From IMG/VR virus record IMGVR_UViG_3300014970_000025: a DNA stretch of 15,433 nt. The stretch is one strand, 5' to 3'. The translations under genes and the position numbers were made by a program. This document shows, in pieces, positions 1 to 14,717 of this stretch. A model generated the notes under the pieces. It was given only the letters and a program-made list of their open reading frames with translations, searched no databases and had not been told where the DNA came from. The stretch is from a virus (taxonomy: Duplodnaviria > Heunggongvirae > Uroviricota > Caudoviricetes). Position 1 is the first letter of the stretch. The number at the start of each line of letters is the position of its first letter.

Positions 1-831
1 ACTCAGTAATATCCATTTTGCAATATCTATGAATTATTTGTGAGACGTATATTAATGAACATTGCAAGGGCTCACAAGCAGTAGTGTTGAGAAAACCATC
101 GGGGAAATGAGGCTAAGCCTTTGAATTTACAAGTACAAAAAAGATACTTTTCCTCATAATGTGAATTAATTTTATGTTTCGTTTGATGATTGGACCGGTC
201 TCGAAAACCGGAGTAGGGGCAACTCTACCGGGGGGGCAAATCCCCCTCTCTCCGCCACTTTATCAATGACTTATCTCCCGACTTCCCGCCTTGCTTTTCC
301 TAAACAGAACAATCGTAGAATATTCTTGAAGGGTTAGATCGTCACTGTTTTCTGTTCGATACTGTGACATTCAGCACTTGATTCGCTATGGATCTGACAG
401 GAAGGTTTCGAGCGAAAATCTGCAGTTATTCAGTCGTTTTCTTATCGGTCACCATTATTCTTTTAGACATTGATCCTACAAAGCTGCCGCAAAGTTGGTG
501 GTGGGAACTGAAGTTGCGTAGAGAAGGGGTCAATACCCGGAGGCAAACATGGGCTGGCAAAAGTGTAGCGGTATTAGGCGCAGCTATTTAGCCTAGTTAT
601 GTTTTATGAAAACTTGATATCATATAAGTGTCTTACTTATTGGCTGTAAATAAGGTTTTCTAAGGAATTGTTTCTTTAGTATCATTTGTAACTGTAACGG
701 AATTTATAATCCTTTGCTTTATTTTTACGGTATTTTTTATCACACCCTATTTTTTGTGTGGTTTTTTATACTGAAGTTTGGCAAAGTGAACTTTATATGC
801 ATATACTTCATCCTGGTTTCAGTTAAATTGG

Positions 832-1584
832 GTGGATGATATGGCAACTACATGTTCAGTTATATTGATTTTGGAGTCCTTTGATGTTTATTTCGGAAAA
901 GAGAGAGTGTTTCTGGATAGAGGTTTATCTGTACTTGTCGACTCTAGCTATAGAGATTTTTTCCTGACATATCCTGAAAGAGTGATAGTGGCGGATTTTG
1001 GCGCTGAGTTTATTAGTCGCTATTTGAAAGCTAATAACTTAAGGGATATTTCTGATTGTAGGGAATATCCATCTTATTTAAAAATAAACTTTGCTGACTT
1101 CAGTTTAATTAAAGGATTAATTAGTTGGGCTAATCACTGTGCTGAATATATAGAAATTTTTGATGAGTCTATTGCTTTTACATGTCTCTCTGCATTTTCT
1201 TCTGAAAAACAATTTGGAGTATTTCTGTTTGGATGTTTGAAAAGCACAGGGGCTAAAGTTAAAACGATTATTCATACGGATTTATCTGCACCATGGCATC
1301 TTAAGGATATATCATCAAGATTATATCTCAGCGAAAGTTTACTAAAGAGGAAATTGAAAGAAGAGGGGGTATCATTCAGTAAGATCATACTTGATGAGAG
1401 GATGCAAATGGCTGAATATTTACTCAGCACTCGTTGTTATCCTGTTAGTAAAGTAGCTAAGGTCTGTGGTTATGCCAGTGTCTCATACTTTACTTATGTA
1501 TTTAGACGTTATTTTGGTGTTTCTCCAAGTCAATACTCTCAGAGGAGTTCAGAAAGTAAAATTCTTACTCACCAGGGAATCTGA
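832..1584 (+). CDS. AraC-family transcriptional regulator, AppY/EnvY/AdiY-like (250 aa)
   Basis: Intact 250-aa ORF. C-terminal double HTH region (WHLKDISSRLYLSESLLKRKLKEEGVSFSKI...VAKVCGYASVSYFTYVFRRYFGVSPSQY) matches the AraC/XylS signature and resembles, from memory, E. coli AppY ([22 protein letters not shown]...QKCGYNSTSYF). Preceded by a very AT-rich upstream region (600-830), typical of horizontally acquired AraC regulators. Start may be 832 or 841. Confidence 0.85.
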   Translation: MDDMATTCSVILILESFDVYFGKERVFLDRGLSVLVDSSYRDFFLTYPERVIVADFGAEFISRYLKANNLRDISDCREYPSYLKINFADFSLIKGLISWANHCAEYIEIFDESIAFTCLSAFSSEKQFGVFLFGCLKSTGAKVKTIIHTDLSAPWHLKDISSRLYLSESLLKRKLKEEGVSFSKIILDERMQMAEYLLSTRCYPVSKVAKVCGYASVSYFTYVFRRYFGVSPSQYSQRSSESKILTHQGI

Positions 1585-1625
1585 TCATTGTTCTTGCCCC
1601 CTTATTTCCAGACAGGGGGTGTATC

Positions 1626-2062
1626 TTAAGTTAACGTTACCCGCTGACGTCGATATTCTCGCGGAGAGCGATAACCCAACGCACTGTGCGGATGGTTTTC
1701 ATTGTAATGTTCGATCGCCACTGCAAGATTATGCAATGCCGTTCTTACATTCGGTTTCGGCATGAACGCGATGTAGTCTTCCTTCATCGTTTTCACGAAC
1801 CTTTCTGCAATTCCATTACTCTGAGGACTGCTGATTGCCGTTGTGCAGGGCTCCAGATTCAACTCTCTGGCGAACTGCCGTGTTTCATGCGCTCTATACG
1901 CTGAACCGTTATCTGTCAGCCACTGGATGGACTGTTCCGGTACTTTATCGCCAAAGCGTTTTTCTATCGCTCCTAACATGACATCCTGCACTGTCGCTTT
2001 ATCGTAACCTCCCGTGCTTGCGGCCCAGTCTATGGCTTCACGATCGCAACAGTCCAGGGCGA
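1626..2062 (-). pseudogene. IS3-family (IS2-like) transposase OrfB, C-terminal fragment (rve/DDE integrase core remnant)
   Basis: Minus-strand translation ...[51 protein letters not shown]...[14 protein letters not shown] matches the C-terminal end of IS3-family OrfB and resembles IS2 InsD as recalled. The frame is open only to an in-frame stop near 2063; the N-terminal part and OrfA are absent; no inverted repeats identified. Confidence 0.8.
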
Positions 2063-2338
2063 TTCATCTGGGCCAATCCTTGCTCATAACAGGCATTCAC
2101 TTCAGTCATGGCAGAAAGGTATGCATGCTGGAGAAGTCGTGAAAGAAAAGAAGACTGCTGCGCCGTTTGTCGTCACGTTTATCTTCATTGGCTATGCAAG
2201 TCGTAATACAAGGTGGGACAAAACTGAGACACATAAGGCCTCGCAATGGCTTGCAAGGCTTTACATGTTTTGATGTGGTGGGACGTGTGAGCGCAGTGTT
2301 GATGGGGTAATGCTTTGAATTAGAAGCGGATTCTTATA

Positions 2339-2384
2339 ATTCGTAATGCGAAGGTCGTAGGTTCGACTCCTATTATCGGCACCA
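2339..2384 (+). repeat. thrW: 3' 46 nt of tRNA-Thr(CGU) gene (anticodon loop to CCA): attachment-site core / direct repeat; not a complete tRNA
   Basis: ATTCGTAATGCGAAGGTCGTAGGTTCGACTCCTATTATCGGCACCA matches, from memory, the 3' part of E. coli thrW (T-arm GGTTCGACTCC, acceptor 3' strand, CCA). The 5' half (GCCGATATAGCTCAGTTGG...) is not present upstream, so this is a partial copy, as left at junctions of tRNA-integrated elements. Confidence 0.75.
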
Positions 2385-2989
2385 TCAAGAAAATCAATAA
2401 CTTAGCTTAACTTCTCTAAGAAATTGTATCTTCTGTTATCACTTACAAACGCCTATACGTTGTTATGGGCTTTGGTAGTGTAACACGTATGGGCGAGTAG
2501 TTCCCAGGCTCAACCTCGTAACAAGTTCCTTTGAAGCTGGAAGACGTGCCACCGTCTCTAAACCTTCTACCAAAACTCTTAGCAAGATGTTCCACACCTG
2601 GCGCGGTGTCCAATGATGCTACACGTCGTGAGACGTTGCAGAGGATAAACAGGCTAAATGATGGGAAGAGTTTTAAGTGCAATAGTGGATTAAAGCCCAC
2701 CTCTTCAAAACCTAACTTGATCGGGAAAGAATCAAGCTCTAGCACGGTTTCGTCCACCGGAGTACAACGGGTGCCTGATAAGAGAAGAACTGCTAAGACT
2801 TCATAGCTTTTGTGAAAAAGCCCTTTTTAGTGGATACGCCTACGGCGCTTATTTTTTGGTATAACCATCAAAGGCGCTTTATGGCTCCTATTGTCTTGAA
2901 AATGTATCTTTACTTGTATTGTGTTTTATGCGTAGTCTCCCTGTGTAGTATGTAACTTGTTAATTTTCATATGAATACAGAGGCAAACG

Positions 2990-3148
2990 ATGAAAAACAT
3001 TGCAGCTATCAAACGTAATAACCGCAAGATTCACGCTCGTAAGTTCCTGTCTACGCCAGAAGGAAAAGCCTGGCTAGAGCGTAAACAGAGAGAGAACGAA
3101 GAAAGAAAACTCCTTAGTGAGTTGAAATGGCTTAGAGAGGATTTCTGA
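2990..3148 (+). CDS. small basic hypothetical protein (52 aa; MKNIAAIKRNNRKIHARKFLSTPEGKAWLERKQRENEERKLLSELKWLREDF)
   Basis: ATG at 2990 preceded by GAGG about 7 nt upstream; below the 60-aa cutoff of the ORF track. Lys/Arg-rich and helical in character. No recognised family. Confidence 0.4.
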   Translation: MKNIAAIKRNNRKIHARKFLSTPEGKAWLERKQRENEERKLLSELKWLREDF

Positions 3149-3309
3149 AAATCTCCAGAACGCAACAGGGCGCATTCTAACGCTGTTTTCATTGCTTGGT
3201 ATAGGGATTATAGGTGATGTGTGTTTAATGCGTCTGTGAGCTTTTTTTGTGCCTTATTTTGCATTTTCATAATGCAGGAGAGAACACGGAAAGCCTTAAA
3301 ATTAATTAT

Positions 3310-3480
3310 TGGGGTATTTAAGGCTATTTTTAGGTGATTTAAGGGTATTAAACTTGATTTAATTGGTTAAAATATAAACAGATAGTTGTGTATCTTATTG
3401 GTTTATAAGGTTATTTTTAAATAAAGGTAAATAAAAAATAAATACCCATAAATAGCTATAAATACATCTAAATACCTATA
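3310..3480. repeat. iteron-like repeat arrays in AT-rich DNA (candidate origin or regulator-binding array)
   Basis: Three ~20-21-bp spaced units (G/T)ATTTAAGG(G/C)TAT at ~3314, 3335, 3355, with a related unit at ~3401; then TAAATA at 3428, 3439, 3449 and 3459, 3469 with exact 10-bp phasing for the last four (ATAAATACCC / ATAAATAGCT / ATAAATACAT / CTAAATACCT). Confidence 0.55.
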
Positions 3481-3491
3481 TCCCCTCCCTT

Positions 3492-3875
3492 ATGGCTAGA
3501 TTGCGAGAGGTGCTTAACGCGATTTTCAGCGCCCCCCGATCTGGAAAATCCAGAATCCCCAAATATCAGCAAGGAATTTTCTTGCGTAATCAACATCGTT
3601 TTTACCTATTAAATCATTACACAGAAAGCCTTTCTGTAATGTCTCTCACTAAACTTTCACTAAACACGAGAATGATCGGTTTTATGTCGGATCAGATGCT
3701 AGAAACAGCACCACGTCTCACAAGGGCTGTAAGCGATGAAACCAGTGTTTATGCGGGTGCAGGTCAAAATATAGGCCAAAATCCATTTAACATAATAAAC
3801 GTAATATGCACTAAGGAACACATAGAACGCCTTGAGTTGATGTATCAGGGGAAAAGTGGTGGATTTTTTACGTAG
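3492..3875 (+). CDS. hypothetical protein (127 aa), doubtful
   Basis: ORF present in track but no Shine-Dalgarno (ATG preceded by CCCCTCCCTT), composition unremarkable, no recognisable domain. May be non-coding. Confidence 0.25.
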   Translation: MARLREVLNAIFSAPRSGKSRIPKYQQGIFLRNQHRFYLLNHYTESLSVMSLTKLSLNTRMIGFMSDQMLETAPRLTRAVSDETSVYAGAGQNIGQNPFNIINVICTKEHIERLELMYQGKSGGFFT

Positions 3876-3894
3876 GAGCACGAGAGGGCTTCTA

Positions 3895-3922
3895 TTGACT
3901 TTTGTATGCTATGAAATATAAT
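3895..3922 (+). promoter_or_regulatory. near-consensus sigma-70 promoter (TTGACT-N16-TATAAT)
   Basis: TTGACT at 3895-3900 and TATAAT at 3917-3922, 16-nt spacer; directs rightward transcription into an ORF-poor region. Confidence 0.5.
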
Positions 3923-4356
3923 AGAAGGTTTTTATTTTTATGTTGATAGTGATTGCACATTAAAGATTGAAAGCAAATTTAAACATAAATTTTCAACACG
4001 TGAAAGAAACTTGTTCGACAAATAATAGATTGATTTTTAATCAACAATTTCTGATAGTGCTCTGTAAGCCGCATTACACAAGGCTTTGCGAAAGTGATGT
4101 AAAAGTGAAGAAAGCTAACATTGCTCTTTTAAGCCACTTTTCATTGAATTTTTAGTATGGAATTACATAGGGATTAATCATCAATTACATTGAATTTAAG
4201 CCTGTTTTAGATAGCAAGAAACACTTTTACTGATTATAAGAAGATCATTGCACAGATGTTATGTGATGGATGTAACGGTAGGTCACTGTGAACTATCCCC
4301 TACAGAATTTTGTTACCTATTAGATCAACTATCAAACTACAATTAAATTATCTTTT

Positions 4357-4576
4357 ATAAATTCTTTTATCTTTAAAGAATAATTATAGGGATACCCGTT
4401 GGATGTAACGATGGGTTACATCGGCAGATGACCGGGGGGGTCGGTCACGATGACCGGGGGGGGTCGGTCACGATGACTGACAATAAGATTACTTTAATAA
4501 TACTAATAATAAAACTAACATCTATAATACTAATAAATTCTTTTATCTTTTAAGAATAATTATAGGGATACCCGTT
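4357..4576. repeat. 44-bp direct repeat pair (43/44 identical) flanking a hairpin and tandem G-tract palindromes
   Basis: DR1 4357-4400 and DR2 4533-4576: ATAAATTCTTTTATCTTT(A/T)AAGAATAATTATAGGGATACCCGTT. Between them: hairpin GATGTAAC-gatgg-GTTACATC (4402-4422); tandem units GATGACCGGGGGGGTCGGTCAC (4427-4448) and GATGACCGGGGGGGGTCGGTCAC (4449-4471), each containing the palindrome TGACCG-N7-CGGTCA; partial third unit 4472-4480. Confidence 0.8.
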
Positions 4577-4581
4577 AGGGG

Positions 4582-4655
4582 AGTCTAACGACTATCCCTT
4601 AATCTATTGGCATTCGCCAGAACCTTGCACAAGTTAGAGTGTTAGTCGTTAGACT
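4582..4655. repeat. 12-bp perfect inverted repeat AGTCTAACGACT / AGTCGTTAGACT separated by 50 bp
   Basis: Arms at 4582-4593 and 4644-4655. The core CTAACG recurs at 4823-4830 (TCTAACGA) and in a bulged hairpin GCGTTACCCC-ttt-GGGGatgcTAACGC at ~4889-4914. Confidence 0.7.
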
Positions 4656-5183
4656 GCTTGTCATAACACATAGTTTTTGTTTGTTGATGTTAGTTAGTAG
4701 ATCTATGTTCGCTAATGCCGCTCACAACGAATATGTAATCTACTATGTGCAAATAGCCTACGGCTTGCGTAAGGCTAAATAGTCTTGCGCTGTGCGCAGA
4801 ACGATAATTAACTAACTACCATCTAACGATCATCAATCATCTAAAATAAATTTCTTGTGCAATGTTCTTGCGAATGCAATTAGGGTAGCGTTACCCCTTT
4901 GGGGATGCTAACGCATAACTATAGATCAACCATCAAACAGACAAAAAAGAAAAATATGGTTTAAAGATGTTAGGTAGTAGATGAGTTTCTACCGCTTAAA
5001 TCAAGCCGTAGGCGAGCAAAACAACCTCTACATAAGGGAATGTATTGTTTTTATCAAAATCTCGTCAGAATGCGTTTTAGAGCGTTTTAGCGGATAATGA
5101 AGAATAGCACCACACAGGAGAGCACGAATTGATAAGAAAAAATGTAAGCGCATGAAAAAGATCAGGTTTTTTATGAAAAGGTA

Positions 5184-5212
5184 TTGACAAATGTTTCTTT
5201 ATATGTAATAAT
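5184..5212 (+). promoter_or_regulatory. sigma-70-like promoter (TTGACA-N17-AATAAT with upstream TG)
   Basis: TTGACA 5184-5189, TGT then AATAAT 5207-5212; sits ~120 bp upstream of the first gene of a + strand gene cluster. Confidence 0.5.
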
Positions 5213-5330
5213 AGGTATTAAAGGGACAGGAAAATATTCTTATCCTCTAAGTAATTAAACCAATGCACCGCACTTTGAAGCCCAAGGCTTGCAAGGTGTC
5301 TATTTCTTTTAACTGAATAAGGAGTTTTTT

Positions 5331-5513
5331 ATGAAATGGTTTACATCGGAACGCGTCGTAGAGGCATTTAAAAAAGGTGAGCTAACACGACATCAAATAG
5401 TAATGAATCGTAATATGGCAAGGAGTCGAGGTTATCCAGAGCGTGAAAAATGCTTTGACGATGCACTAAAAATTATTGATGAACTGCGTAAGGCAGAGGC
5501 AGAGAAAGAATAA
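5331..5513 (+). CDS. small hypothetical protein (60 aa)
   Basis: Strong SD (AAGGAG, 6-nt spacing) before ATG 5331; product MKWFTSERVVEAFKKGELTRHQIVMNRNMARSRGY..., no family recognised. Confidence 0.55.
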   Translation: MKWFTSERVVEAFKKGELTRHQIVMNRNMARSRGYPEREKCFDDALKIIDELRKAEAEKE

Positions 5514-5534
5514 TAACAAGAGAAGGAGAAAACT

Positions 5535-5705
5535 ATGAGCGAAACTACAGAAAAGAAAAGACAACCACGCACTTGCTTTCATATTCCTGATGAAGTATTT
5601 CAGGTGTTATTTAAAGAAGCAAGAAGTAAACGTATCACTGTTACAGATTACATTCTTGATATGTTGAAAAGAGAGGCTGAAACACTCTCAAATAAAAGCA
5701 AGTGA
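5535..5705 (+). CDS. Arc-like ribbon-helix-helix (RHH) DNA-binding protein (56 aa)
   Basis: SD AGGAG before ATG 5535; below ORF-track cutoff. CFHIPDEVFQVLFKEARSKRITVTDYILDMLKRE aligns by eye with P22 Arc (FNLRWPREVLDLVRKVAEENGRSVNSEIYQRVMESF): beta-strand followed by two helices, RHH pattern. Confidence 0.65.
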   Translation: MSETTEKKRQPRTCFHIPDEVFQVLFKEARSKRITVTDYILDMLKREAETLSNKSK

Positions 5706-5759
5706 TTTTTATCACCATAGTAGCGCCGTAGAGCGTGATTACATACAGGAGATTTTTTA

Positions 5760-6386
5760 ATGATTAACCAACCAACTTTTACAAAACACTATGACACGTT
5801 CGATAACATCTCGAAGATTTACTCTGATAAATTGCCTCAAGGAAAAGATTTAGAGCTATTACACATTGTGCTTTATTTTCGATTTCTTAGTTATCAGGAG
5901 AACAATCTTAATTGTTACGAAAGTCACGAGACATTAGCTAAGATTTTTAAGGCTTCGGTATCAACGATTCAACGTAAGATTAAAGATCTTAAGGAGATGG
6001 GGTTATTAGATACATCCCCGCACTCTGATCCTAACATTACATCCCTTGTTTATACTGCTCTCCCTCTCACAGATGCACACATTACACCACCGGAAGACGT
6101 GAAATTCGCTGTAAACGTAGAACGGGCTGCACCTGAATATCAGGAAACATTAGAAGCGACACACTCTATTGAGCAGGAAACACAGGAATCAGCGTTCCCT
6201 GAGCGGCCCGAAATTTTTACTTGGCTTCTTTCCCTTGATAAGAAGAAACCACCACACGAAGAAACAGAAGATTTTGTAAAACGAGCATTAGATTCAAAGA
6301 ATATCTATCTTTGTGAAAATGATTTTGACTCTTTGATAATTGATCTCAAAAGTGAGAGCACAATATATGATTCACTACCCTTCTAA
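5760..6386 (+). CDS. winged-HTH DNA-binding protein, replication-initiator/organizer-like N-terminal domain (208 aa)
   Basis: SD AGGAG before ATG 5760. N-terminal LLHIVLYFRFLSYQENNLNCYESHETLAKIFKASVSTIQRKIKDLKEMGLLD follows the pattern of phage/plasmid Rep-type winged-helix domains; C-terminal half acidic and unassigned. Confidence 0.7.
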   Translation: MINQPTFTKHYDTFDNISKIYSDKLPQGKDLELLHIVLYFRFLSYQENNLNCYESHETLAKIFKASVSTIQRKIKDLKEMGLLDTSPHSDPNITSLVYTALPLTDAHITPPEDVKFAVNVERAAPEYQETLEATHSIEQETQESAFPERPEIFTWLLSLDKKKPPHEETEDFVKRALDSKNIYLCENDFDSLIIDLKSESTIYDSLPF

Positions 6387-6521
6387 GGAGAATAAATGAC
6401 TTATAACATCACAAACAATCAATAACAACAGATCGGGCAATACATATGGCAAATGCATTTATGGCGATATTCATCGTAACAATGGCATTCAGTTTTTATA
6501 ATCCACATAAAAAGAGGGAAA

Positions 6522-6905
6522 ATGGGAAGAAAGAAGAAGAACAACTTAAAACGTATTGAAAAAAACAGTAACTTCAATTCAACAAGACAACGTCCACCGA
6601 CACACACCAATAACGAAATTCCAGGGGAAGAGATAATATTTATTCTTGAAACAGAATCCCCTGAATTAAGCGATGAAGAATTAGAAATAATCCAGTCAAT
6701 GCCAGGCGTTTACTTTCGCCCAAGAACAAGAAAACAAACTATCATTTCTGATGGCACTCTGAAACGTTGGCAGCTTTTAGGGTTTAGCTCCTATCATCAT
6801 TTTTTGGGATTTAACGCTTTCAATAATTGTGTAGGTGGTGCATCGGAAGTCGATCTGATGGCTCATTTAGAAGATACATTAGCTTCTAACAAACGTTCTA
6901 ACTAA
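6522..6905 (+). CDS. hypothetical protein (127 aa), basic N-terminus and acidic middle
   Basis: SD GAGGG before ATG 6522; no family recognised. Confidence 0.5.
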   Translation: MGRKKKNNLKRIEKNSNFNSTRQRPPTHTNNEIPGEEIIFILETESPELSDEELEIIQSMPGVYFRPRTRKQTIISDGTLKRWQLLGFSSYHHFLGFNAFNNCVGGASEVDLMAHLEDTLASNKRSN

Positions 6906-6920
6906 TAAAATGATGGGCGT

Positions 6921-7166
6921 ATGTATAAGCGCCCAATGAAAATATTCAAAAAAGGAAAAATAATGATTGGCTATATTCAAGAAACACAATTATTTCAGAT
7001 GATCCTGTCTGATGCAAAAAACTATGCTGAGTTAATCCGACTGGCAAAAGAAACAGAAGACTACGAAGCATTAGAGCGTTATCGTGATGAAGTGCTGACG
7101 CTCAAGACACCTTTTAACATCGTATTGAATATGATTAATGATGCATTACAAGGAGAAGCCGCATAA
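6921..7166 (+). CDS. small hypothetical helical protein (81 aa; alternative start 6963 gives 67 aa)
   Basis: Internal ATG 6963 has the better SD (AAGGAAAAATAATG). Stop overlaps the next start (TAATG at 7164-7168), suggesting translational coupling. Confidence 0.45.
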   Translation: MYKRPMKIFKKGKIMIGYIQETQLFQMILSDAKNYAELIRLAKETEDYEALERYRDEVLTLKTPFNIVLNMINDALQGEAA

Positions 7167-7474
7167 TGGAAGAAGATATTAGCAATGCAATGGAACAACT
7201 TTTAGATCTGACTATCTCACTACAAACAAGAATAAATCAAGCCTATTCAGATTTATGTGATTACACGCTCTCTCAATGCGTTATTAGCTTAATGAAGGTG
7301 AATGTAAGCCTTGACGATTTTATCTCTCTGGTGAGCGATTTAGAGCTATCAGAGGACGATGCAAAACAGTGTAATCAAATCATCACAGACATCGCCACCA
7401 CGTTAAAGGTTGCAAGTGAAGAGATTCAGCAATTAGTAGATGATTTAGCAAAAAGTGCTATTTTCTCTAAATGA
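7166..7474 (+). CDS. acidic helical hypothetical protein (102 aa)
   Basis: Start overlaps the upstream stop; product rich in D/E/L/I; no family recognised. Confidence 0.55.
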   Translation: MEEDISNAMEQLLDLTISLQTRINQAYSDLCDYTLSQCVISLMKVNVSLDDFISLVSDLELSEDDAKQCNQIITDIATTLKVASEEIQQLVDDLAKSAIFSK

Positions 7475-7487
7475 TAATGAAAATTAT

Positions 7488-7516
7488 TTGCATTTATAAT
7501 GATTTTGTTATATAAT
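7488..7516 (+). promoter_or_regulatory. near-consensus sigma-70 promoter (TTGCAT-N17-TATAAT)
   Basis: TTGCAT 7488-7493, TATAAT 7511-7516, plus a second TATAAT at 7495-7500; followed by ~0.9 kb without any + strand ORF above ~25 codons. Confidence 0.5.
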
Positions 7517-8401
7517 AATTTTAGGGGTAGATAAAAAGATTTTAGTTGGTGTTAATCCTTCTACTGTCATAAATCCCTGCATATGGAAGGTGATAGCCTC
7601 AAAGGTTGAGTGGCATTAACCTCTAACAAATATTACCTTCCATCTCTCAAGAAGTTTTAGAATAATCATAACTCCCTCTTTGATTGTTGATTGTTTCTAC
7701 GTTGTGTTGATGAATGTTGTTAGGCATTGTGCTTAATTTTGATAAAAGCGGGTAGGTGTTATCTCCTTGCCCTTCCCGCTCTTATTTTTCATCTATGCTT
7801 ATCCTAAAGCTCCTTATTTTGTCCGAAAACATTAAAGAGCCTTACACTGATAGTTATATTTTATAACTATTTACTAACATCATTAAACTCTTATTTAATG
7901 ACGGAAGTTAGTAACAGAATAATCTATTAAGTTGTTGTCAAAAAACTATCATCTGCATAGCGTTAGCCGCAAGTAGAGAGAGTTTAGCTAAGAATGGTGC
8001 AATAAACTTTGGAAATATTGATAGCAAAACGGGTTTTATAGAATGCGGATCTATAAGCTTTGGTTGTAAAAACGATTTTCTGAAACGGTAGATTACTGTT
8101 GGTGTAGTTAATCCTATTAAAATTTGATCTGTGAGTAGATTAGAATTGGAATAGTGATTCCTTAAAGCCTTACTTTGTTGCATCCACAGCAAAAACAGGC
8201 AGCGGTTTAGCCCCCGCATCGAATAGCAGGATCGTAGATTCCAAAGGGTTGGCCCCTCCTAAGAGCCAATTTCTCCTGCGGTCCTGTTATTCACCCTTAA
8301 CATATCTCTAAGCGTATTTATAAAAGTATTCTTAGAGATAACGTTAAACCTCCTCAAAGTTGACTTATCACAATATGTATTTTGCCCGATACAAAATAAA
8401 T

Positions 8402-8452
8402 AAGCCCCTTGCTATTGTTGATTGAACCTCTTATAGCCTGGGGCTTTTTATT
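8402..8452 (+). terminator. stem-loop followed by T-run (possible intrinsic terminator or RNA 3' structure)
   Basis: AAGCCCC (8402-8408) pairs with GGGGCTT (8440-8446), followed by TTTTATT; loop is long (31 nt) so classification is tentative. Confidence 0.3.
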
Positions 8453-8480
8453 ACTCGGAACATAACGGAATCGTTATTTT

Positions 8481-8690
8481 ATGAAACAAGAAATTATCCT
8501 GAAATATGGCAATGAAAAGTTAACACTAACTGAGGATGTGTTGAATGCTACAGCCTACGCGCTTGGCATCACTCCTACAGAATTAAAGAAACAGTGTGAA
8601 CGTCTTTATAAGGCTGACAGCAATAAACCATCTCACCAAGATTTGATTAATGCTAAAGCTCAACAAATCAAACAATCTAAGGAAAAATAA
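8481..8690 (+). CDS. small hypothetical protein (69 aa), possible HTH-like segment
   Basis: Stop overlaps the start of the next gene (TAATG at 8688-8692). Segment ATAYALGITPTELKKQ is HTH-like. No family assigned. Confidence 0.5.
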   Translation: MKQEIILKYGNEKLTLTEDVLNATAYALGITPTELKKQCERLYKADSNKPSHQDLINAKAQQIKQSKEK

Positions 8691-9064
8691 TGGCTATTTT
8701 AAAATTAAGCGATGTTTTCCCACATCGTAAAAGCATCACTGACGTAGTGAGCTATGCAACCGACCCTTACGCGGCTGTAGAAAGCAAAAAATTTGCAGCA
8801 CTTGCACAAGATGTAACGTGCGGCGACCTCATTGATTCATCCGGCGCTAAATATGTTAGCGGCGCTGATGTTCTTGTCGTTGTGTCTGACTTCGTAACTG
8901 CTGATTCAAATAAAACAGTTAACGTGCTTCGTGCTAATGCCGGACTCGTTTGCATCAAAGCTGATGCCCTGAATGCCGAAGGCGCTGTAAAAGAAGCTGC
9001 TATTGCAGCTCTCGCTGCTAAAGGCTTCCAGCTTGAAGGCTTCCACTCTGTTTTCACATCTTAA
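8690..9064 (+). CDS. putative head decoration protein (lambda gpD/SHP-like position and size, 124 aa)
   Basis: SD AAGGA; lies immediately upstream of an E-like major capsid gene, as D does in lambdoid head modules; size typical; Ala/Val/Gly-rich. Assignment rests mainly on synteny and composition. Confidence 0.45.
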   Translation: MAILKLSDVFPHRKSITDVVSYATDPYAAVESKKFAALAQDVTCGDLIDSSGAKYVSGADVLVVVSDFVTADSNKTVNVLRANAGLVCIKADALNAEGAVKEAAIAALAAKGFQLEGFHSVFTS

Positions 9065-9080
9065 GAAGGAATAAATAATA

Positions 9081-10109
9081 ATGATTATCGGAAATGAAGT
9101 GGTTGATCTTGCTCCACTGTTTGAATTAAACGATACCCGTAACTATCTGCTGTCTACTCTGGATTTTACTGATCCTGTGCCTGTAGAAAGTCACAAAGTG
9201 GCTGTTTCCCAGCTTATCGAGAGCAATGAATCTCTGTTCAACCATCCTACAAGCCGTTTTAGCTCTGAGCATAACGTTACTAAACGTGAAAACGCGGAAG
9301 AGTGGCTGATTGAAATTCCTTATTTCCTGCGTGAAGACCTGATCACACCGCAGGACGTGCAAGGCAAACGAAAAGCCGGAAGCTCTATTGAAGAAACACT
9401 GCCGGATCTGTATGCGGAATATATCGCTAAACACAATGTTGCATTCCAGCGCACTAAAGAAAGCATCCTCGCGGCTTCTCTGTTCTCTGGCAAGACGCAT
9501 ACCCCGAAAACTGACGATGTTCTGATCGACTACAGCACTCTGTTCGGTGTGTCTCCAATGACTGCAACCGTTGACGCATCCAGCACCAACACAATGACTG
9601 TGTTCAAACAGTTTGACCAGATGCATACGGATATGATTGCTAAAGCACAAAGCCAGGCTGCAACCATTGAGCGTGTTGTTGTGTTCTGTAAGCCTGCGGC
9701 ATTCAACGCTATTCGTTACAGCGTTGGCATGGTTAATGCGTTCCAATATGCAAGCCCTGTAGACGATGCAAACGTGGTGTTTAATGTGCGCTCTCTGCTG
9801 CCTGGTGTAACTACTTTCACCATTCCAGGAACTAACATTGATCTGATCAAAGTGACTGATCCGCTGCTGCTGGCACATATGACCGCAGACGCTGTAGCTG
9901 TTCCTAAATTCGCTAAAGGTGCAGGTGTTTACCAATCTATTTATGGCGCTCCTTCCAGTTCCTTCGATCTGCTGTCTCAAGGCGCTAAAGAGTATTACAG
10001 CTATGCTTTCGAATCGAATCGCGGCGACGCAGTGCACGTAGTGACCGAGAATAGCTCGCTTGTGGTTAACCACGGTGTTGGCTTCTCTGTGCAGATCACA
10101 GTAGCGTAA
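9081..10109 (+). CDS. phage major capsid protein, lambda gpE-like family (342 aa)
   Basis: SD AAGGAA; length nearly identical to lambda gpE (341 aa); C-terminus ...VVNHGVGFSVQITVA resembles gpE ...DPDEFVSVQLA and internal ERVVVFCKPAAFNAIRYS resembles gpE NIIVFDPKGWALFRSF (by recall). Confidence 0.8.
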   Translation: MIIGNEVVDLAPLFELNDTRNYLLSTLDFTDPVPVESHKVAVSQLIESNESLFNHPTSRFSSEHNVTKRENAEEWLIEIPYFLREDLITPQDVQGKRKAGSSIEETLPDLYAEYIAKHNVAFQRTKESILAASLFSGKTHTPKTDDVLIDYSTLFGVSPMTATVDASSTNTMTVFKQFDQMHTDMIAKAQSQAATIERVVVFCKPAAFNAIRYSVGMVNAFQYASPVDDANVVFNVRSLLPGVTTFTIPGTNIDLIKVTDPLLLAHMTADAVAVPKFAKGAGVYQSIYGAPSSSFDLLSQGAKEYYSYAFESNRGDAVHVVTENSSLVVNHGVGFSVQITVA

Positions 10110-10273
10110 AAAGTGTTAAAGACGTTCCCCTACGTCTGGAAATAATCGGGGGGCAATAAGGGTAAGGAGATTAACTAACCTGTAGGCGCAAATACAGTAA
10201 CGAATCTCTTTGCCCTTTTTGTTTTTCTACTGTCTACAAATCCAAATAAAAATATATATGTGAGAGAAAACCA

Positions 10274-10471
10274 ATGAACACAGAAAATTCACAGGCATTA
10301 ATTCTTAAATCTGTAAAAGAACTGGCAGCTATTAGCGATGACTCAATAATCAATGTCAGTGCCTTATGCAGAATGCTTTCAATTGATGCAAATAATGTGC
10401 GGCAGCGTGTGTTTCAGACCGGGTGCAGCACTTTCGAAGCAATCCAATATTATTGTTCTAAAAAACAATAA
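10274..10471 (+). CDS. small hypothetical protein (65 aa)
   Basis: Weak SD; segment VSALCRMLSIDANNVRQR is HTH-like; uncertain. Confidence 0.35.
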   Translation: MNTENSQALILKSVKELAAISDDSIINVSALCRMLSIDANNVRQRVFQTGCSTFEAIQYYCSKKQ

Positions 10472-10505
10472 CAAACAACAATCATAATACAGGGAAACAA
10501 TCAGT

Positions 10506-12347
10506 ATGTTAGAACTAAACGTGGCACGCCTCTCGAACGTTGTCACCTTCGAAGTTAACCGACCATCATTAGAGAAAGCAAAAGCAGAAGTAGAAAAACT
10601 TCGTAAACAAATGGCGGCGGTGAAAGATATAGAATTGCGTGTTAAGACACATAAACAATCAACCGCTAAAGCAAAAAAAGACGTAGACGATATTGCTAAA
10701 AAGCAAGCACAGGCAGATAAAGCCAATGCTAAAGCACAATTAGCCGCTCAACGTGTAGTTGCAAGAGAACAAAAAGCCCTGGCAGCACGGAAAGAGAAGG
10801 CTGAATTAAAGCTTTTAGACGTTGGAGCAAGCATTAGCGCATTGCACCGTCTTTCTGTAGCGGAACAATATAAAGCTATTGCACAGGCTAGAGAAATTGC
10901 CCTCCAATATGAAAGAGGCGCTATTAGTCTGGCACGTATGAATAGCCAAATGAAACGCCTACAACAGCAACAACGTAAGATTAATGGCAATCGTAACGCT
11001 CACGCTAAAGCCTATGCACCTGTTAAGGGTAGCGGGAGTATTGGCGGCGGTGCTGCGGCTGTTATGCTGGGTGGCTTAGGCGCTGGCGCTGCATATATGG
11101 CTATGAGCAAAGCTTCTGAATTTGTTACTAACAGCTTTGCGAATGCTGAAACGCTGGGAGAATTGTATAGCCGTGCGAAGCTGGGCGGTGTAGACGTTAA
11201 CCAGATGAACAATATTGAGCAATGGGCGTATAAAAACGGCGTTGATTCAATGATGGGGGATCAAGGTAAACGTAAGTATCTCGATCAGATGAAAGATGTG
11301 CGTGAGCGTGCAACCAAAAGCTATGATGAGGCTGAATATGTAGTCGATAAAAAAACAGGCAAAGGTGAATGGAAGGGCGGCGATAGCGGCATCAACGTTC
11401 TCATGAACGAAGGATTCTTAACTAAGAAAGATTTGAAAGACTTTGCTGATAATCCTGCTGGCCTGGTTAGTAAAGCAGTTCAGGGAATGGTAGCTAAAGG
11501 CTATTCAGATGCACAAATCGGTAGTCGTCTTGAAGACTTGGGCGATGATTTGATGCTCACCTCTAAATACTGGACACGCTCCGCTAAAGAAGTGGAACAA
11601 TCAGCACGAGAACAACGAGAATCAGGGCGCTGGGTAACACAGGCACAACAGGAAAGCGTTATTAAATTCCGTGAACTGAATAATGCACTTAGTGGGCTTT
11701 CTGACTCACAAGGGATCGCCTTTGTTGATGGCTTTATGAAATCTCTTGATCCGAAAGTGATTGAAGAGTTTAAAAAGAGCATGGTTGCAATGCTGCCAAT
11801 GTTTACCAAATTAGGCGAGGCTATCGGCGGATTGGTTAACGCTGTAATGAAAGCAATCAACTGGCTGATGAAAAACGACGAGAAGACGGCAGCTATTCAG
11901 AAGAATTTAGGTGATGCACCGCCACTATCTAACGAAGGAATGAAGCAGAATCTTTCTAATCTCACTCCTGATCAATATAAAGGCGCTGGCACCGGAACAA
12001 CTAAGCCAGATAACAGCAATTCCCTGGTTAACACTATTAAAAGCTGGTTTATGCCAGAAGAAACGGTAGGTGGGGCGCAGGCTGTAAATCAATACAGTCT
12101 CGAAGGACAAAACATTGCAAATCTGAAACAGAGTGCAGCACAACAAGCTTTCAAGGCTCCTTCTTACACCTTTGCACCTGTTATTAACTTCAATCCAGAA
12201 TTACAAGTAAATGCAGAAGTGCCGCTAACTATCGAATCAGACACCGGACGATTGAGCGAATTTATCGACTTCAAATCAAAGGCATCCTCCGCTGAGTTTA
12301 GCAAGCTATTAACGCTGGGTGTTATGTCAGGCGGGTCAACCTATTAA
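10506..12347 (+). CDS. tape-measure-like protein: long Lys/Ala/Gln coiled-coil N-terminus, Gly-rich hydrophobic segment, large C-terminal region (613 aa)
   Basis: Residues ~20-170 are heptad-like charged helix (EKAKAEVEKLRKQ...KAQLAAQRVVAREQKALAARKEKAELK), followed by GSGSIGGGAAAVMLGGLGAGAAYMAMS (membrane-like). This architecture is typical of phage tail tape-measure or ejection proteins. No enzymatic motif seen. Confidence 0.5.
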   Translation: MLELNVARLSNVVTFEVNRPSLEKAKAEVEKLRKQMAAVKDIELRVKTHKQSTAKAKKDVDDIAKKQAQADKANAKAQLAAQRVVAREQKALAARKEKAELKLLDVGASISALHRLSVAEQYKAIAQAREIALQYERGAISLARMNSQMKRLQQQQRKINGNRNAHAKAYAPVKGSGSIGGGAAAVMLGGLGAGAAYMAMSKASEFVTNSFANAETLGELYSRAKLGGVDVNQMNNIEQWAYKNGVDSMMGDQGKRKYLDQMKDVRERATKSYDEAEYVVDKKTGKGEWKGGDSGINVLMNEGFLTKKDLKDFADNPAGLVSKAVQGMVAKGYSDAQIGSRLEDLGDDLMLTSKYWTRSAKEVEQSAREQRESGRWVTQAQQESVIKFRELNNALSGLSDSQGIAFVDGFMKSLDPKVIEEFKKSMVAMLPMFTKLGEAIGGLVNAVMKAINWLMKNDEKTAAIQKNLGDAPPLSNEGMKQNLSNLTPDQYKGAGTGTTKPDNSNSLVNTIKSWFMPEETVGGAQAVNQYSLEGQNIANLKQSAAQQAFKAPSYTFAPVINFNPELQVNAEVPLTIESDTGRLSEFIDFKSKASSAEFSKLLTLGVMSGGSTY

Positions 12348-12357
12348 TCATCACTGT

Positions 12358-12373
12358 GGGGCTGTTTAGCCCC
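12358..12373 (+). terminator. GC-rich hairpin GGGGCT-gttt-AGCCCC with weak U-tract
   Basis: Perfect 6-bp stem, 4-nt loop, 10 nt after the stop of the 613-aa gene; followed by CTTAAAT rather than a strong T-run. Confidence 0.35.
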
Positions 12374-12394
12374 CTTAAATAAGGATTACAAATT

Positions 12395-13072
12395 ATGGCA
12401 ATGGGTCCGTTAACCATTGGTCGCCCGACTGAGGCGAAAATCAACAGCACAAGCAACGATAGCAACGGTAGAACAACCAAAGGGGGTAACGGCTTTGCGA
12501 TCATTGCCTCTAACCTCGGCAGTGGTGCAAATGCTGCTTACAATGACTACCAGGCATTATCATTTGATAGCGTGGAATCGACGAAAGTTAGCAGAAATGC
12601 GGACGTTACAAGCTATGCCGTCGAATCAGGATCAGAAGTTAGTGATCATGTTCAAATACGGAATAACAAGTTCACATTACAAGGGCGTATCTCTGAAACC
12701 GTATTGAAGCTCAATCCCGATATGATTAAGAATGCGGGAATTAACGGCAATAGACGTATGCTTATGCTTGAATACCTAAATCAGTTGATGGACAGTCGCC
12801 AACCTTTCCTACTTGTCACTGAGTTAAAAAATTATGACAACGTTGTGTTAGTTGGCATGTCTTACGAAGAAGAAGCAAGCGAAAGTATATTGTTTACTCT
12901 TGATTTTGAGCAAATTCGTCTTGTCTCTAAGGCCACCACTAATGCTATTGCTGTAAAAACAGCACCAAATAAATCTGTAGGGGGACAGGTTAAAATGCAG
13001 GTAAATACAACAGAACAGAAAAATCAAAAAAGCCCAGGGCAAGACGTTGTAACACCAGTATTTAAACAATAG
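12395..13072 (+). CDS. hypothetical protein (225 aa), Ser/Thr/Asn-rich N-terminus; possible virion-associated protein
   Basis: SD AAGGA 9 nt upstream; follows the tape-measure-like gene; no family recognised. Confidence 0.6.
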   Translation: MAMGPLTIGRPTEAKINSTSNDSNGRTTKGGNGFAIIASNLGSGANAAYNDYQALSFDSVESTKVSRNADVTSYAVESGSEVSDHVQIRNNKFTLQGRISETVLKLNPDMIKNAGINGNRRMLMLEYLNQLMDSRQPFLLVTELKNYDNVVLVGMSYEEEASESILFTLDFEQIRLVSKATTNAIAVKTAPNKSVGGQVKMQVNTTEQKNQKSPGQDVVTPVFKQ

Positions 13073-13153
13073 CCTTAAACGCCTATGAAACGCTCTGTAA
13101 CGATGTAATTATAAAAGAGGCTACCAATCTATGTTGAAGCCTCCTTATTACGT

Positions 13154-14488
13154 CTATGGCGTTGTTTTACGCCTTAAATTTGATTTTTTATTGATTGATA
13201 AGCCTTTCTCTATTTCAGGGTAGCGTAAAAGCTCAATATATTTTTTAAGCTCTACTGGAGAAGCTGCATTTTTGCTATATGTGCGGAATGTTTCTGTATT
13301 GCCGCGTGTATGGCCCAGGAGAAGGGCGATCCTGTCTTCTGGAATTTGATTTCGATCAAGAAGCTGTGCTACTCCGTGTCTCAGAGAATGAAACACTTTC
13401 CTTTCTGTTCCCTTTTCCCCTAAAGCCTTTCGTTTAGCTCTTGTAAATCGTTGTGTATGCCACGTAGAGCGTTTACCGTCAGCACGTTCTGTAATGCTGG
13501 CGTGATAGAACAAAAAGCCATTGTGAGGCTTTTCACGCAGCGACAACACCAACGGAGTGATAAGGCTATGTACAGGCACAACACGTGCCGCTGCTTTCGT
13601 CTTTCCCTGTGTGATTTCAAAACACAGCACACCTTCGATCTCTTTCACATCGTCTATTGTGAGACTTGCTATCTCATTGATCCGCATACCTGTATATAAA
13701 CCGATAAGACACAAAGCCGTCATTTCTTTGTTTTCTGCTGAATTACCGGAAAATACTTGCAACACCTGCAATAGCTCTTTGTTAGAAAATGCCTCGTAGC
13801 TCTCTCTACTTTGTGCCACATCAAGCCTATGCCCTCGCCAGGGGGAGAGCGCCCTTTCTGGCGCATCGTGGTAACGTGATGAAGCTAACTCCCATAGCTG
13901 GGCCATTGGGCTGATATAATTTGCAATTGATTGTTGTGAAAGAGTTTTTTGCATGTGTTCAATCCAGCCTGTAACAGTGGTGCGGCTTACGTCTTGCAAT
14001 GCAATATCAGGCTTTTTACGGTAGGAGAGAAACATCTCTACCGCTTTTCTTGCCTTAGCTAAAGTGGCTGGCTTCTTCTTCGTGCTGTTAATTGTCAGGT
14101 AGATTTCAAGAATTTTAAGCAATGACGGACACGAAGACGCTGTATCTTGCATTCTGGTAGCTGTTTTGGCGTATTTAGCCTTACTGCGTAACAGTTCCAG
14201 CGTGTTTTCTATTGTGCTGTTTACAGGGGCAACACTCTCCCGTAAGCAATGGTATTCATCTGCAATCTGATCACGCTTTCTACGTGCAACACGAAGATTA
14301 CTTGTGTGCAGACTTCTGACAAACGTCCTTTTTCCTTCAAAAAAGGGCTGCATATACACAGGCAGCGTGATCCTTAAATAGTAGTTACCGTAAGAATCAC
14401 AGATTAAGTATTGGTTAGGCTTGTATCTCATAAAATCTCCGGCTAAAGTGTCGGAGCGTTTGTAATGTGAAAATTGATTGTGACGCAT
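13154..14488 (-). CDS. tyrosine site-specific recombinase (phage/P4-type integrase, 444 aa; alternative start at 14431)
   Basis: Catalytic-domain motifs TGMRINE (Arg), HSLRHGVAQ (His-x-x-Arg), LLGHTRGNTETFRTYSK (His, Tyr nucleophile); N-terminal YLRITLP...FFEGKRTFVRSL typical of tRNA-site integrases; lies adjacent to a tRNA-Thr-derived repeat. Confidence 0.9.
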   Translation of the reverse strand: MRHNQFSHYKRSDTLAGDFMRYKPNQYLICDSYGNYYLRITLPVYMQPFFEGKRTFVRSLHTSNLRVARRKRDQIADEYHCLRESVAPVNSTIENTLELLRSKAKYAKTATRMQDTASSCPSLLKILEIYLTINSTKKKPATLAKARKAVEMFLSYRKKPDIALQDVSRTTVTGWIEHMQKTLSQQSIANYISPMAQLWELASSRYHDAPERALSPWRGHRLDVAQSRESYEAFSNKELLQVLQVFSGNSAENKEMTALCLIGLYTGMRINEIASLTIDDVKEIEGVLCFEITQGKTKAAARVVPVHSLITPLVLSLREKPHNGFLFYHASITERADGKRSTWHTQRFTRAKRKALGEKGTERKVFHSLRHGVAQLLDRNQIPEDRIALLLGHTRGNTETFRTYSKNAASPVELKKYIELLRYPEIEKGLSINKKSNLRRKTTP

Positions 14489-14528
14489 AGAAAATGATTA
14501 TTTTTCTATAAGATTCAATCAATTAGTA

Positions 14529-14591
14529 ATGGTCGTAGGTGATGGCATTAACACGAGATTAATCGAGTGTTTTACTCCTATTATCGCACCA
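14529..14591 (+). pseudogene. degenerate tRNA-Thr 3'-end copy (ptwF-like att remnant)
   Basis: GGTCGTAGGT (14531-14540) ... ACTCCTATTATCGCACCA (14574-14591) matches the thrW 3' end except for a ~33-bp insertion replacing the T-loop and one missing G; same orientation as the 2339-2384 copy. Confidence 0.6.
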
Positions 14592-14717
14592 TTAAAATCA
14601 AAGAGTTACCCCATATTTAAATACACCACGTTTCCTCCTGTGCCGCATTTGTGCCATTGTAACCTTGGCAATTCATCAAAATACTGTTCTGACATCAGGC
14701 AGTGCAGGTGCAGCTAT

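Follow-up and report, generated by a model that had tools for sequence, protein, structure and literature searches.

How can a phage capsid gene and its decoration gene be maintained together in DNA that holds no other part of a phage head? The question is raised by IMG/VR virus record IMGVR_UViG_3300014970_000025, a stretch of 15,433 nucleotides (nt) that we refer to as the window. Here, open reading frames (ORFs) of 69, 124 and 342 amino acids (aa) follow one another on the plus strand at positions 8481–8690, 8690–9064 and 9081–10109. An initial annotation, made from the sequence alone, placed all three ORFs correctly and called the latter two a pair resembling the D (decoration) and E (capsid) genes of lambda, preceded only by the 69-aa ORF and ORF-free DNA. 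It reasoned that, with no portal, protease, scaffold or terminase nearby, the proteins are either non-functional relics or are used together with the portal and terminase of a lambdoid helper phage, as in capsid-remodelling satellites. We find that the pair is probably the head module of an integrative satellite, with virulent myoviruses of ∼150 kb, the Stephanstirmvirinae, as its likely helpers.

The identity of the pair is secure, by two different routes. The 342-aa protein is a major capsid protein with the HK97 fold, of the E family, matching Pfam Phage_cap_E (PF03864) over its full length (residues 15–341, E = 9e-19). The folds nearest to its AlphaFold2 model (mean predicted local distance difference test score, pLDDT, 74) are the capsids of PhiTE, Bas63, ICP1, Sf14, YSD1, Chi and lambda (gpE), with the ICP1 coat protein (8g1r) among the closest structural matches by Foldseek; its nearest relatives are of the phi92/FelixO1/PhiTE myovirus type, not lambdoid. 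The 124-aa protein is resolved by fold comparison only, which shows the trimeric beta-tulip fold of gpD-type capsid cement (decoration) proteins. By sequence, nothing was obtained for it from Pfam, PHROGs, a PDB profile search or an hhalign comparison with phAPEC8 gp115, and similarity to gpD (Pfam) and to the phAPEC8 homolog of gp123, the phi92 cement protein, is undetectable.

The absence of partners for this pair was also borne out. The DNA at 7475–8480 contains no plus-strand ORF of 60 aa or more, and the window ORFs that were scanned with Pfam and PHROGs include no match to a portal, protease, scaffold or terminase. Searching by tblastn with 19 phi92 structural proteins against ∼50 related loci, each with 10 kb on either side, recovered only the capsid, tape measure and tail-tube initiator, and no terminase, portal, scaffold, adaptor, stopper, terminator, sheath, tube, chaperone, plug or hub. 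Thus the missing head genes do not lie adjacent to the pair in related copies; it is their presence there that the initial annotation would have taken to imply simple deletion. Neither the element nor any of these loci has the order terminase–portal–protease–scaffold–D–E. Instead, genes for a tape measure and a tail-tube initiator, which the initial annotation does not mention, come directly downstream.

The pair is part of a compact integrated element of 12.2 kb, occupying window positions 2339–14592 and flanked by attachment (att) sites. This size follows from the positions of the two att copies, at 2339–2385 and 14574–14592, the latter next to a gene for a tyrosine integrase. The left copy, attL, is a 47-nt copy of the 3' end of the tRNA-Thr gene thrW and is 100% identical to both att repeats of the CP4-6 cryptic prophage of Escherichia coli K-12. 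Its core, ACTCCTATTATCG, is found again at 14574 in attR, where the site reads ACTCCTATTATCG-CACCAT and is one base shorter than its attL counterpart. The locus is thrW/CP4-6 of E. coli: beyond attR lies the yagP/paoD side of the K-12 CP4-6 locus, and K-12 CP4-6 has the att site and the right flank in common with the element and none of its genes.

Between its ends the element is ordered as attL, a non-coding arm, repeats, a promoter-like site, small ORFs, a replication initiator, small ORFs, a spacer, the structural operon, the integrase gene and attR. The initiator-like protein (208 aa, 5760–6386, plus strand) carries a helix-turn-helix (HTH) domain (Pfam HTH_36, 3.7e-7, and DUF6945), and its PHROGs matches are replication initiation or O-like families. 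In the structural operon, all on the plus strand, the cement and capsid genes are followed by a 65-aa ORF of conserved position (10274–10471), a tape-measure homolog of 613 aa (10506–12347; phrog_16051, 3.7e-32) and a tail-tube initiator homolog of 225 aa (12395–13072; Pfam Dit_like, 1.4e-27). The integrase gene (13154–14488, minus strand; Pfam PF00589, PF20172 and PF13102) encodes an N-terminal DUF6538 domain. Portal, terminase, sheath, tube and baseplate genes are absent; we are therefore dealing with a discrete integrative element that has an integrase and a replication initiator but only some of the genes needed to build and fill a virion, as phage satellites do.

The element is one of a family. 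Capsid homologs of 342–345 aa, with 39–80% identity, occur in E. coli, Cronobacter, Citrobacter, Klebsiella, Enterobacter, Dryocola and Serratia, and the same gene order is seen in Klebsiella, Enterobacter, Serratia, Buttiauxella, Kluyvera, Scandinavium, Citrobacter and at least two structural-gene lineages of E. coli. Counted together, no fewer than nine genera of Enterobacterales carry this architecture, integrated at differing sites. These relatives measure 12.2–14.2 kb and are flanked by direct repeats of their own, at thrW, at other tRNA-like 3' ends and at other targets. Among complete E. coli genomes the pair is present in 394 of 5426 (∼7%), with up to three copies per genome; carriers include avian pathogenic E. 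coli (APEC) O1 and further isolates from humans and animals.

The core ORFs run to full length in all complete related copies; the insertion sequences IS1 or IS3 interrupt some of the copies in E. coli. The ratio of nonsynonymous to synonymous substitution rates (dN/dS) on homologs, a check that the initial annotation had proposed, was calculated by the Nei–Gojobori method from unsaturated pairs. It is 0.07–0.09 for the capsid protein, 0.10–0.13 for the tape measure, 0.02–0.06 for the tube initiator (Dit-like), whose gene is present in some lineages and not all, and 0.09–0.14 for the integrase. In the position of the 69-aa ORF, which has no family match, every lineage has an ORF of ∼66–74 aa with a dN/dS of 0.08–0.12. 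Purifying selection (dN/dS 0.07–0.13), together with intact core ORFs and an architecture conserved across genera, refutes the suggestion that the proteins are non-functional relics.

Which phages, then, might supply what is missing? The best phage matches of the capsid, tape measure and Dit-like proteins all belong to one subfamily, the Stephanstirmvirinae, virulent myoviruses of ∼150 kb that comprise phi92 (Justusliebigvirus), phAPEC8 (Phapecoctavirus) and their kin, including Klebsiella phages. The cryo-EM structure of phi92 identifies gp124 as the T=13 capsid protein, gp123 as a beta-tulip cement trimer, gp134 as the tape measure and gp135 as the hexameric tube initiator (PMC13450770). Taken with the homologies, these roles mean that the island encodes a shell (cement and capsid) and a tail core (tape measure and initiator). 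The phage gene order is retained, with cement followed by capsid and, further on, a small ORF followed by the tape measure and the initiator. The 65-aa ORF ahead of the tape-measure gene was considered as a counterpart of phAPEC8 gp105, and this was ruled out as the two have no similarity.

The degree of relatedness differs from protein to protein. The capsid has 19–25% identity to phi92 gp124 and ∼24% to phAPEC8 gp114. The tape measure, with ∼26–31% identity to its best phage matches (all Stephanstirmvirinae), is 46 aa shorter than gp134, which it resembles at its extreme N-terminus (39% over 33 aa) and over residues 84–612, through to the C-terminus (26%). The tube initiator is much closer, at 51% identity to phi92 gp135 and 54% to phAPEC8 gp103, and across islands it ranges from 49% to 78% identity to the helper's. 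Within its gene, segments of 12599–12975 have 82–93% nucleotide identity to Phapecoctavirus (93% to phAPEC8 at 12902–12972), which suggests recent recombination with a phage; the only nucleotide similarity to these phages elsewhere in the element is the motif described below.

That motif, a non-coding segment of 76 nt at 3492–3567 on the plus strand, is a candidate packaging and cleavage site that copies the sequence across the inner boundary of the phages' 343-bp direct terminal repeat. It comprises Box A, GTGCT^TAACG (3510–3519), and, after ∼41 nt, Box B, AAATATC (3561–3567). The 46-mer at 3495–3540 agrees with phi92 nt 318–363 in 44 of 46 bases (E = 9e-12 against 2.3 Gb of phage DNA) and matches ∼46 phi92-like genomes. 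As the left direct terminal repeat of phi92 is annotated at 1–343, its boundary falls in the middle of the Box A decamer, at the caret. In Klebsiella phage phi1_175008, comparison of genome prefix and suffix gives a repeat of 343 bp whose end lies within that decamer as well; for a third phage, BME3 of the phi92 group, the repeat measures 342 bp according to PhageTerm (PMC12210895). The sites at the start and end of the repeat have GTTR^AGC in common, extended to GTTR^AGCAC in phi1_175008. In the phages the motif lies in a stretch free of genes that immediately precedes the first early genes; in phAPEC8 this stretch is the only long gene-free gap in the 82 kb examined. An annotated 'CDS0002' overlaps the motif in phi1_175008 and was considered as a coding link; it has no protein similarity to the overlapping window ORF, and the shared segment appears better read as non-coding.

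Between the islands of several genera and the phages, the 76 nt can be aligned and their flanks cannot. An nhmmer search places the motif in 34 island loci, always in one orientation and 5.1–7.3 kb upstream of the capsid gene, and it is present in 427 of the 5426 E. coli genomes. The island motifs fall into variants. Those of type 1 (the window and locus L020) have 77% identity to phi92 and 63% to phAPEC8, while those of type 2 (L008, L010, L029, L030 and L034) have 80–82% identity to phAPEC8 and 55% to phi92. Motifs from Klebsiella, Enterobacter and Citrobacter islands have 68–73% identity to the Klebsiella phage and 43–59% to the E. coli phages. From phage to phage, identity of the motif is only 57–72%. 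Motif types reassort independently of structural-gene lineage: L008 encodes a capsid protein 97% identical to that of the window, yet carries a type-2 motif, and L038 is a hybrid. Variants that follow phage genus in this way are the pattern that would be expected of a helper-specific cis site.

The motif directly follows a conserved and apparently non-coding left arm (2386–3491, plus strand), which holds only a 52-aa ORF (2990–3148), annotated in related copies by the Prokaryotic Genome Annotation Pipeline and the sole annotated gene of the arm. Across E. coli island lineages the arm has 96.7–98.7% nucleotide identity, compared with only ∼73% for their capsid genes, and between genera its similarity does not keep a reading frame. 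Part of the arm may be arm sites for the integrase. The block of high identity that it shares with the L020 lineage stops at 3568, one base past the end of the motif, which suggests either mosaic structure or a functional cis module of 1.2 kb.

A specific link to one group of helpers is thus suggested by two kinds of sequence comparison, the boundary copy that co-varies with phage genus and the three proteins nearest to a single subfamily. On balance, and a little less firmly than we assign the pair to a satellite, we favour the view that these islands, in ∼7–8% of complete E. coli genomes and across Enterobacterales, form a new satellite family that parasitises Stephanstirmvirinae. It would encode the shell and tail core itself (with or without the tube initiator), take portal, terminase, sheath, tube and baseplate from the helper, be packaged by way of its copied cut site, and switch its choice of helper by swapping the 76-nt module. 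The cycle that we infer would begin with infection by a helper, upon which the element would be excised by its integrase and replicated by its O-like initiator. The late operon would then supply the element's own capsid and cement, and a small shell would be built on helper portals using the helper's scaffold and protease. Scaling interior volume from the helper, in which a T=13 shell holds 148.6 kb, a shell of T ∼3–4 would suit 12–14 kb. Helper terminase would recognise the 76-nt boundary copy, cut it at Box A and package the satellite DNA. The resulting heads would join with helper sheath, tube, baseplate and fibres, the tails being nucleated on the satellite's tape measure and tube initiator; alternatively, these two proteins would poison helper tail assembly.

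Such a cycle keeps one part of what the initial annotation had proposed and replaces others. Use of the proteins with a helper's portal and terminase gains indirect support, from the bounded mobile unit, the homologs in one subfamily and the cut-site copy. The likely helpers, however, are not lambdoid phages resident in the same genome but virulent myoviruses, and capsid remodelling as in P4, the Staphylococcus aureus pathogenicity islands (SaPIs) or PLE does not describe an element that supplies capsid and cement proteins of its own.

Several observations weigh against this satellite interpretation. We recognised in the element neither a scaffold or protease nor a small terminase, repressor or antirepressor. 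No free packaged form of ∼12 kb was found in IMG/VR, all matches being 19–76 kb and mostly proviral regions of isolate genomes, and the island capsid gene is in no GenBank phage record, every tblastn match having <60% identity. The phage repeat boundaries come from database annotation and prefix–suffix analysis, not from reads. Conservation of the motif within E. coli is not specific to it, because the whole 1.2-kb left arm is highly conserved. Only a single, cut-type site was found in the island, with neither a second, start-type site nor further phi92 repeat sequence. With the capsid at 19–25% identity to those of the helpers, its compatibility with the helper portal, scaffold and protease is an assumption. 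Finally, the structural proteins are equidistant from phi92 and phAPEC8, and their similarity does not track motif type.

The most serious of the competing explanations, though in our view an unlikely one, is that the island is a non-transmissible defence that interferes with assembly. Its diverged versions of the helper's capsid, cement, tape measure and tube initiator would be built into helper assemblies and spoil them, the copy of the cut site would serve as a decoy that ties up or diverts the helper terminase, and the bacterial population would be protected without transfer of the island. The proteins encoded are just those that nucleate head and tail and set their size, the initiator has the close identity to the helper's (49–78%) that a poison subunit would require, and interference with tail assembly is a known strategy of mobile elements (PMC11364771); the lack of a packaged form in viral collections also fits. 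However, the narrow size range of 12.2–14.2 kb, the integrase with its varied att sites, the initiator and the spread through at least nine genera point to a unit that is transferred and packaged, and a full cement and capsid pair under strong selection exceeds the needs of a decoy. PADLOC defence models identified no system in the element, giving weak HTH matches only. Moreover, interference and transfer are compatible, and known satellites do both.

It is also conceivable, but we think doubtful, and rather more so than a defence role, that the element is a satellite in which the 76-nt motif is regulatory, for instance the binding site of a helper early protein by which infection is sensed, held in common with the leftmost early control region of the helper. 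The location of the phage copy just ahead of the first early genes would suit such a role, as would the single site per island and the lack of a recognisable repressor or antirepressor. What argues for cleavage instead is that the repeat boundary lies inside the invariant decamer in two divergent phages, and that GTTR^AGC is common to the start and end sites of the repeat, as a nuclease site would look; no promoter-like hexamers are present within the motif.

That the element is a decaying prophage, from which portal, protease, scaffold and terminase have been deleted, is highly improbable. Its position in the CP4-6 cryptic-prophage locus at thrW, beside insertion sequence fragments, and the copies interrupted by IS1 or IS3 in E. 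coli might suggest decay, but the same reduced gene set recurs with intact ORFs at different sites in at least nine genera, the dN/dS values are low (0.07–0.13) and the missing genes are in no related copy. In addition, the closest phages are virulent and without an integrase of this type, and K-12 CP4-6 has only the att site and flanks in common with the element. We give equally little credence to a portal-less closed shell with a cellular function, akin to an encapsulin or a domesticated nanocompartment, since despite the missing portal gene and the small portal-less HK97 elements proposed from metagenomes (bioRxiv 10.1101/2025.06.18.659913), the operon goes on to encode a tape measure and, in some lineages, a tube initiator as well, the element holds a copy of a phage cut site, and Pfam finds no cargo or encapsulin-type domains.

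The remaining features of the element lie mostly upstream of the structural operon. A cluster of repeats at 4260–4700, located by repeat search, includes 44-nt direct repeats at 4357–4400 and 4533–4576, which flank two exact tandem copies of the 21-mer GGGGGGGTCGGTCACGATGAC (4434–4454 and 4457–4477); this cluster is a candidate replication origin, or may be another cis site. Ahead of the early operon is a sigma-70-like promoter sequence, TTGACA-17-TGnAATAAT (5184–5212, plus strand), with 11 of 12 consensus matches; it lies in a region (4992–5330) that is 82–88% conserved among E. coli lineages. A consensus scan for promoters and terminators gave, overall, no more than shuffled expectation. Two small conserved early ORFs without family matches follow on the plus strand (60 aa, 5331–5513; 56 aa, 5535–5705), and islands of Klebsiella, Enterobacter, Buttiauxella and Citrobacter have homologs of them in the corresponding place. 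Beyond the initiator are three small plus-strand ORFs of 127, 81 and 102 aa (6522–7474) with no Pfam, PHROG or PADLOC match, of which the 127-aa family is kept across the element family.

The spacer at 7475–8480 is specific to the lineage of the window and can be aligned only there. It contains a 93-aa minus-strand ORF (7938–8219) without a family match, which may be spurious or a small cargo gene. The end of the spacer has a terminator-like hairpin with a U-run at 8395–8452 (folding free energy −20.4 kcal/mol, z = −4.2), and terminator-like hairpins occur at the equivalent position in at least two other lineages (L020, 9320–9349; L017, 9317–9345). In these three lineages the hairpins precede the opening ORF of the structural operon by 30–90 nt and are unrelated in sequence; a fourth, L003, has only a U-run there. 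This arrangement hints at control of late expression by antitermination, or at the end of an upstream transcript. An Rfam scan of the whole window gave a single sub-threshold chance match, outside the element.

Upstream of the element, window positions 1–2338 are left over from a different island, with an AraC-family regulator (832–1584) and a fragment of an IS3-family transposase (1626–1991, minus strand). The window has no intact tRNA gene, and the thrW-derived att copy at 2339 comes after this remnant; the locus is therefore a tandem array of islands at thrW. In other islands, the segment from attL to the early operon is a variable cargo region (L017, 2311–4726; L003, 2968–5083; L020, 4321–4860). 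It holds an HNH protein and a short integrase-like protein of 186–205 aa in Enterobacter, Klebsiella and Serratia, a Dam methylase in Klebsiella and a resolvase in the second E. coli lineage; the copy in the window has no such cargo genes.

The L020 island has an integrase 95% identical to that of the window but a different site, marked by a 52-bp direct repeat (3054–3105 and 15390–15441). It interrupts a LysR-family gene, with HTH_1 to its left and the substrate-binding portion to its right; the right flank of the window is likewise a LysR fragment (yagP). We considered whether L021, a 12,344-bp Logan contig, might be an excised circle and rejected this, since a 52-bp att repeat gives exactly such ends in an assembly graph with k=31. 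A distant and more minimal relative without a tape-measure gene is present at 734–6701 of L056 (IMGVR_UViG_2869437394_000005). It has a DUF6945/HTH_36 initiator, four small ORFs, an E-family capsid (29% identity), two small ORFs and a DUF6538 integrase, and may represent a sister family of capsid-only elements.

Should our interpretation hold, a satellite family would for the first time have been proposed for virulent phages in E. coli and its relatives, and it would be the first satellite known to bring its own shell and tail core and to take all else from the helper. The candidate helpers, phi92-like and phAPEC8-like phages, have broad host ranges and are often isolated as candidates for therapy and biocontrol; an island in ∼7% of complete E. 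coli genomes could then lower the yield of these phages and disseminate island DNA in the course of a treatment. The 76-nt motif is itself a concrete candidate for the Stephanstirmvirinae packaging site and could mark which helper genus an island follows. A literature search, with subscription literature outside its reach, found no description of this element family or of any Stephanstirmvirinae satellite. A September 2026 survey of Enterobacter with SatelliteFinder recognises only elements of the P4-like kind, phage-inducible chromosomal islands (PICIs) plus capsid-forming PICIs (cf-PICIs); PICI-like elements (PLEs), one of the four SatelliteFinder families, were described only in Vibrio cholerae as of that survey (PMC13612085). 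The element carries the defining gene set of none of these four.

Among known satellites, P4 offers one parallel. It too is an integrated element of ∼12 kb with its own integrase and replication functions, and it copies the DNA-end site of its helper, P2 (P4 cos matching P2 cos), so that helper terminase packages P4. P4 is packaged in a smaller capsid and encodes the capsid-decorating protein Psu, to which the cement and proposed small head of our element may be likened. P4, however, resizes the helper's capsid protein with the external scaffold Sid, whereas our element has its own capsid, cement, tape measure and initiator; and the helper of P4 is temperate with cohesive ends, whereas the candidate helpers here are virulent with 343-bp direct terminal repeats. 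Neither Pfam nor PHROGs matched the P4 genes alpha primase, sid, psu or delta in the element, which places it outside the P4-like definition.

The cf-PICIs resemble it in being chromosomal islands that encode an HK97-fold capsid protein of their own and leave that of the helper unremodelled. They also encode portal, protease, head–tail connectors and small terminase, and take only tails, from temperate helpers (PMC13612085). Our element has none of these further head and packaging genes and carries two tail-core genes instead, and so differs from the cf-PICI definition. It departs too from classical Gram-negative PICIs, which are defined by int, an AlpA-type regulator, a primase/rep gene and a gene that redirects packaging (ppi, rpp or terS): an integrase is present, but there is no match to AlpA, primase or terS, and the initiator is of the HTH_36/O-like type.

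In its proposed relation to a virulent myovirus helper the element is like PLE, a chromosomal satellite of ICP1, a virulent myovirus of ∼125 kb; PLE has its own replication initiator, makes small capsids and blocks its helper. Unlike our element, PLE has no capsid gene and hijacks the ICP1 coat protein with the scaffold TcaP; the gene contents are unrelated, and PLE has a serine recombinase and is confined to V. cholerae, whereas ours has a tyrosine integrase and hosts among the Enterobacterales. The families that define PLE (large serine recombinase, RepA_N initiator and TcaP) were undetected in the element. The PICMIs (minimalist islands in the chromosome, inducible by phages) of the Vibrionaceae are likewise small islands mobilised by virulent phages. 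They are reported to carry a minimal set of genes, with none for structural proteins, and not to remodel capsids (PMC10803314).

Finally, the cement–capsid pair itself has its counterparts in gpD/gpE of lambda and gp123/gp124 of phi92, with which it shares the order of cement then capsid, an E-family HK97 shell and a trimeric beta-tulip cement protein. Those are autonomous phages, in which the pair comes after terminase, portal, protease and scaffold, whereas in the island it comes after regulatory and replication genes.

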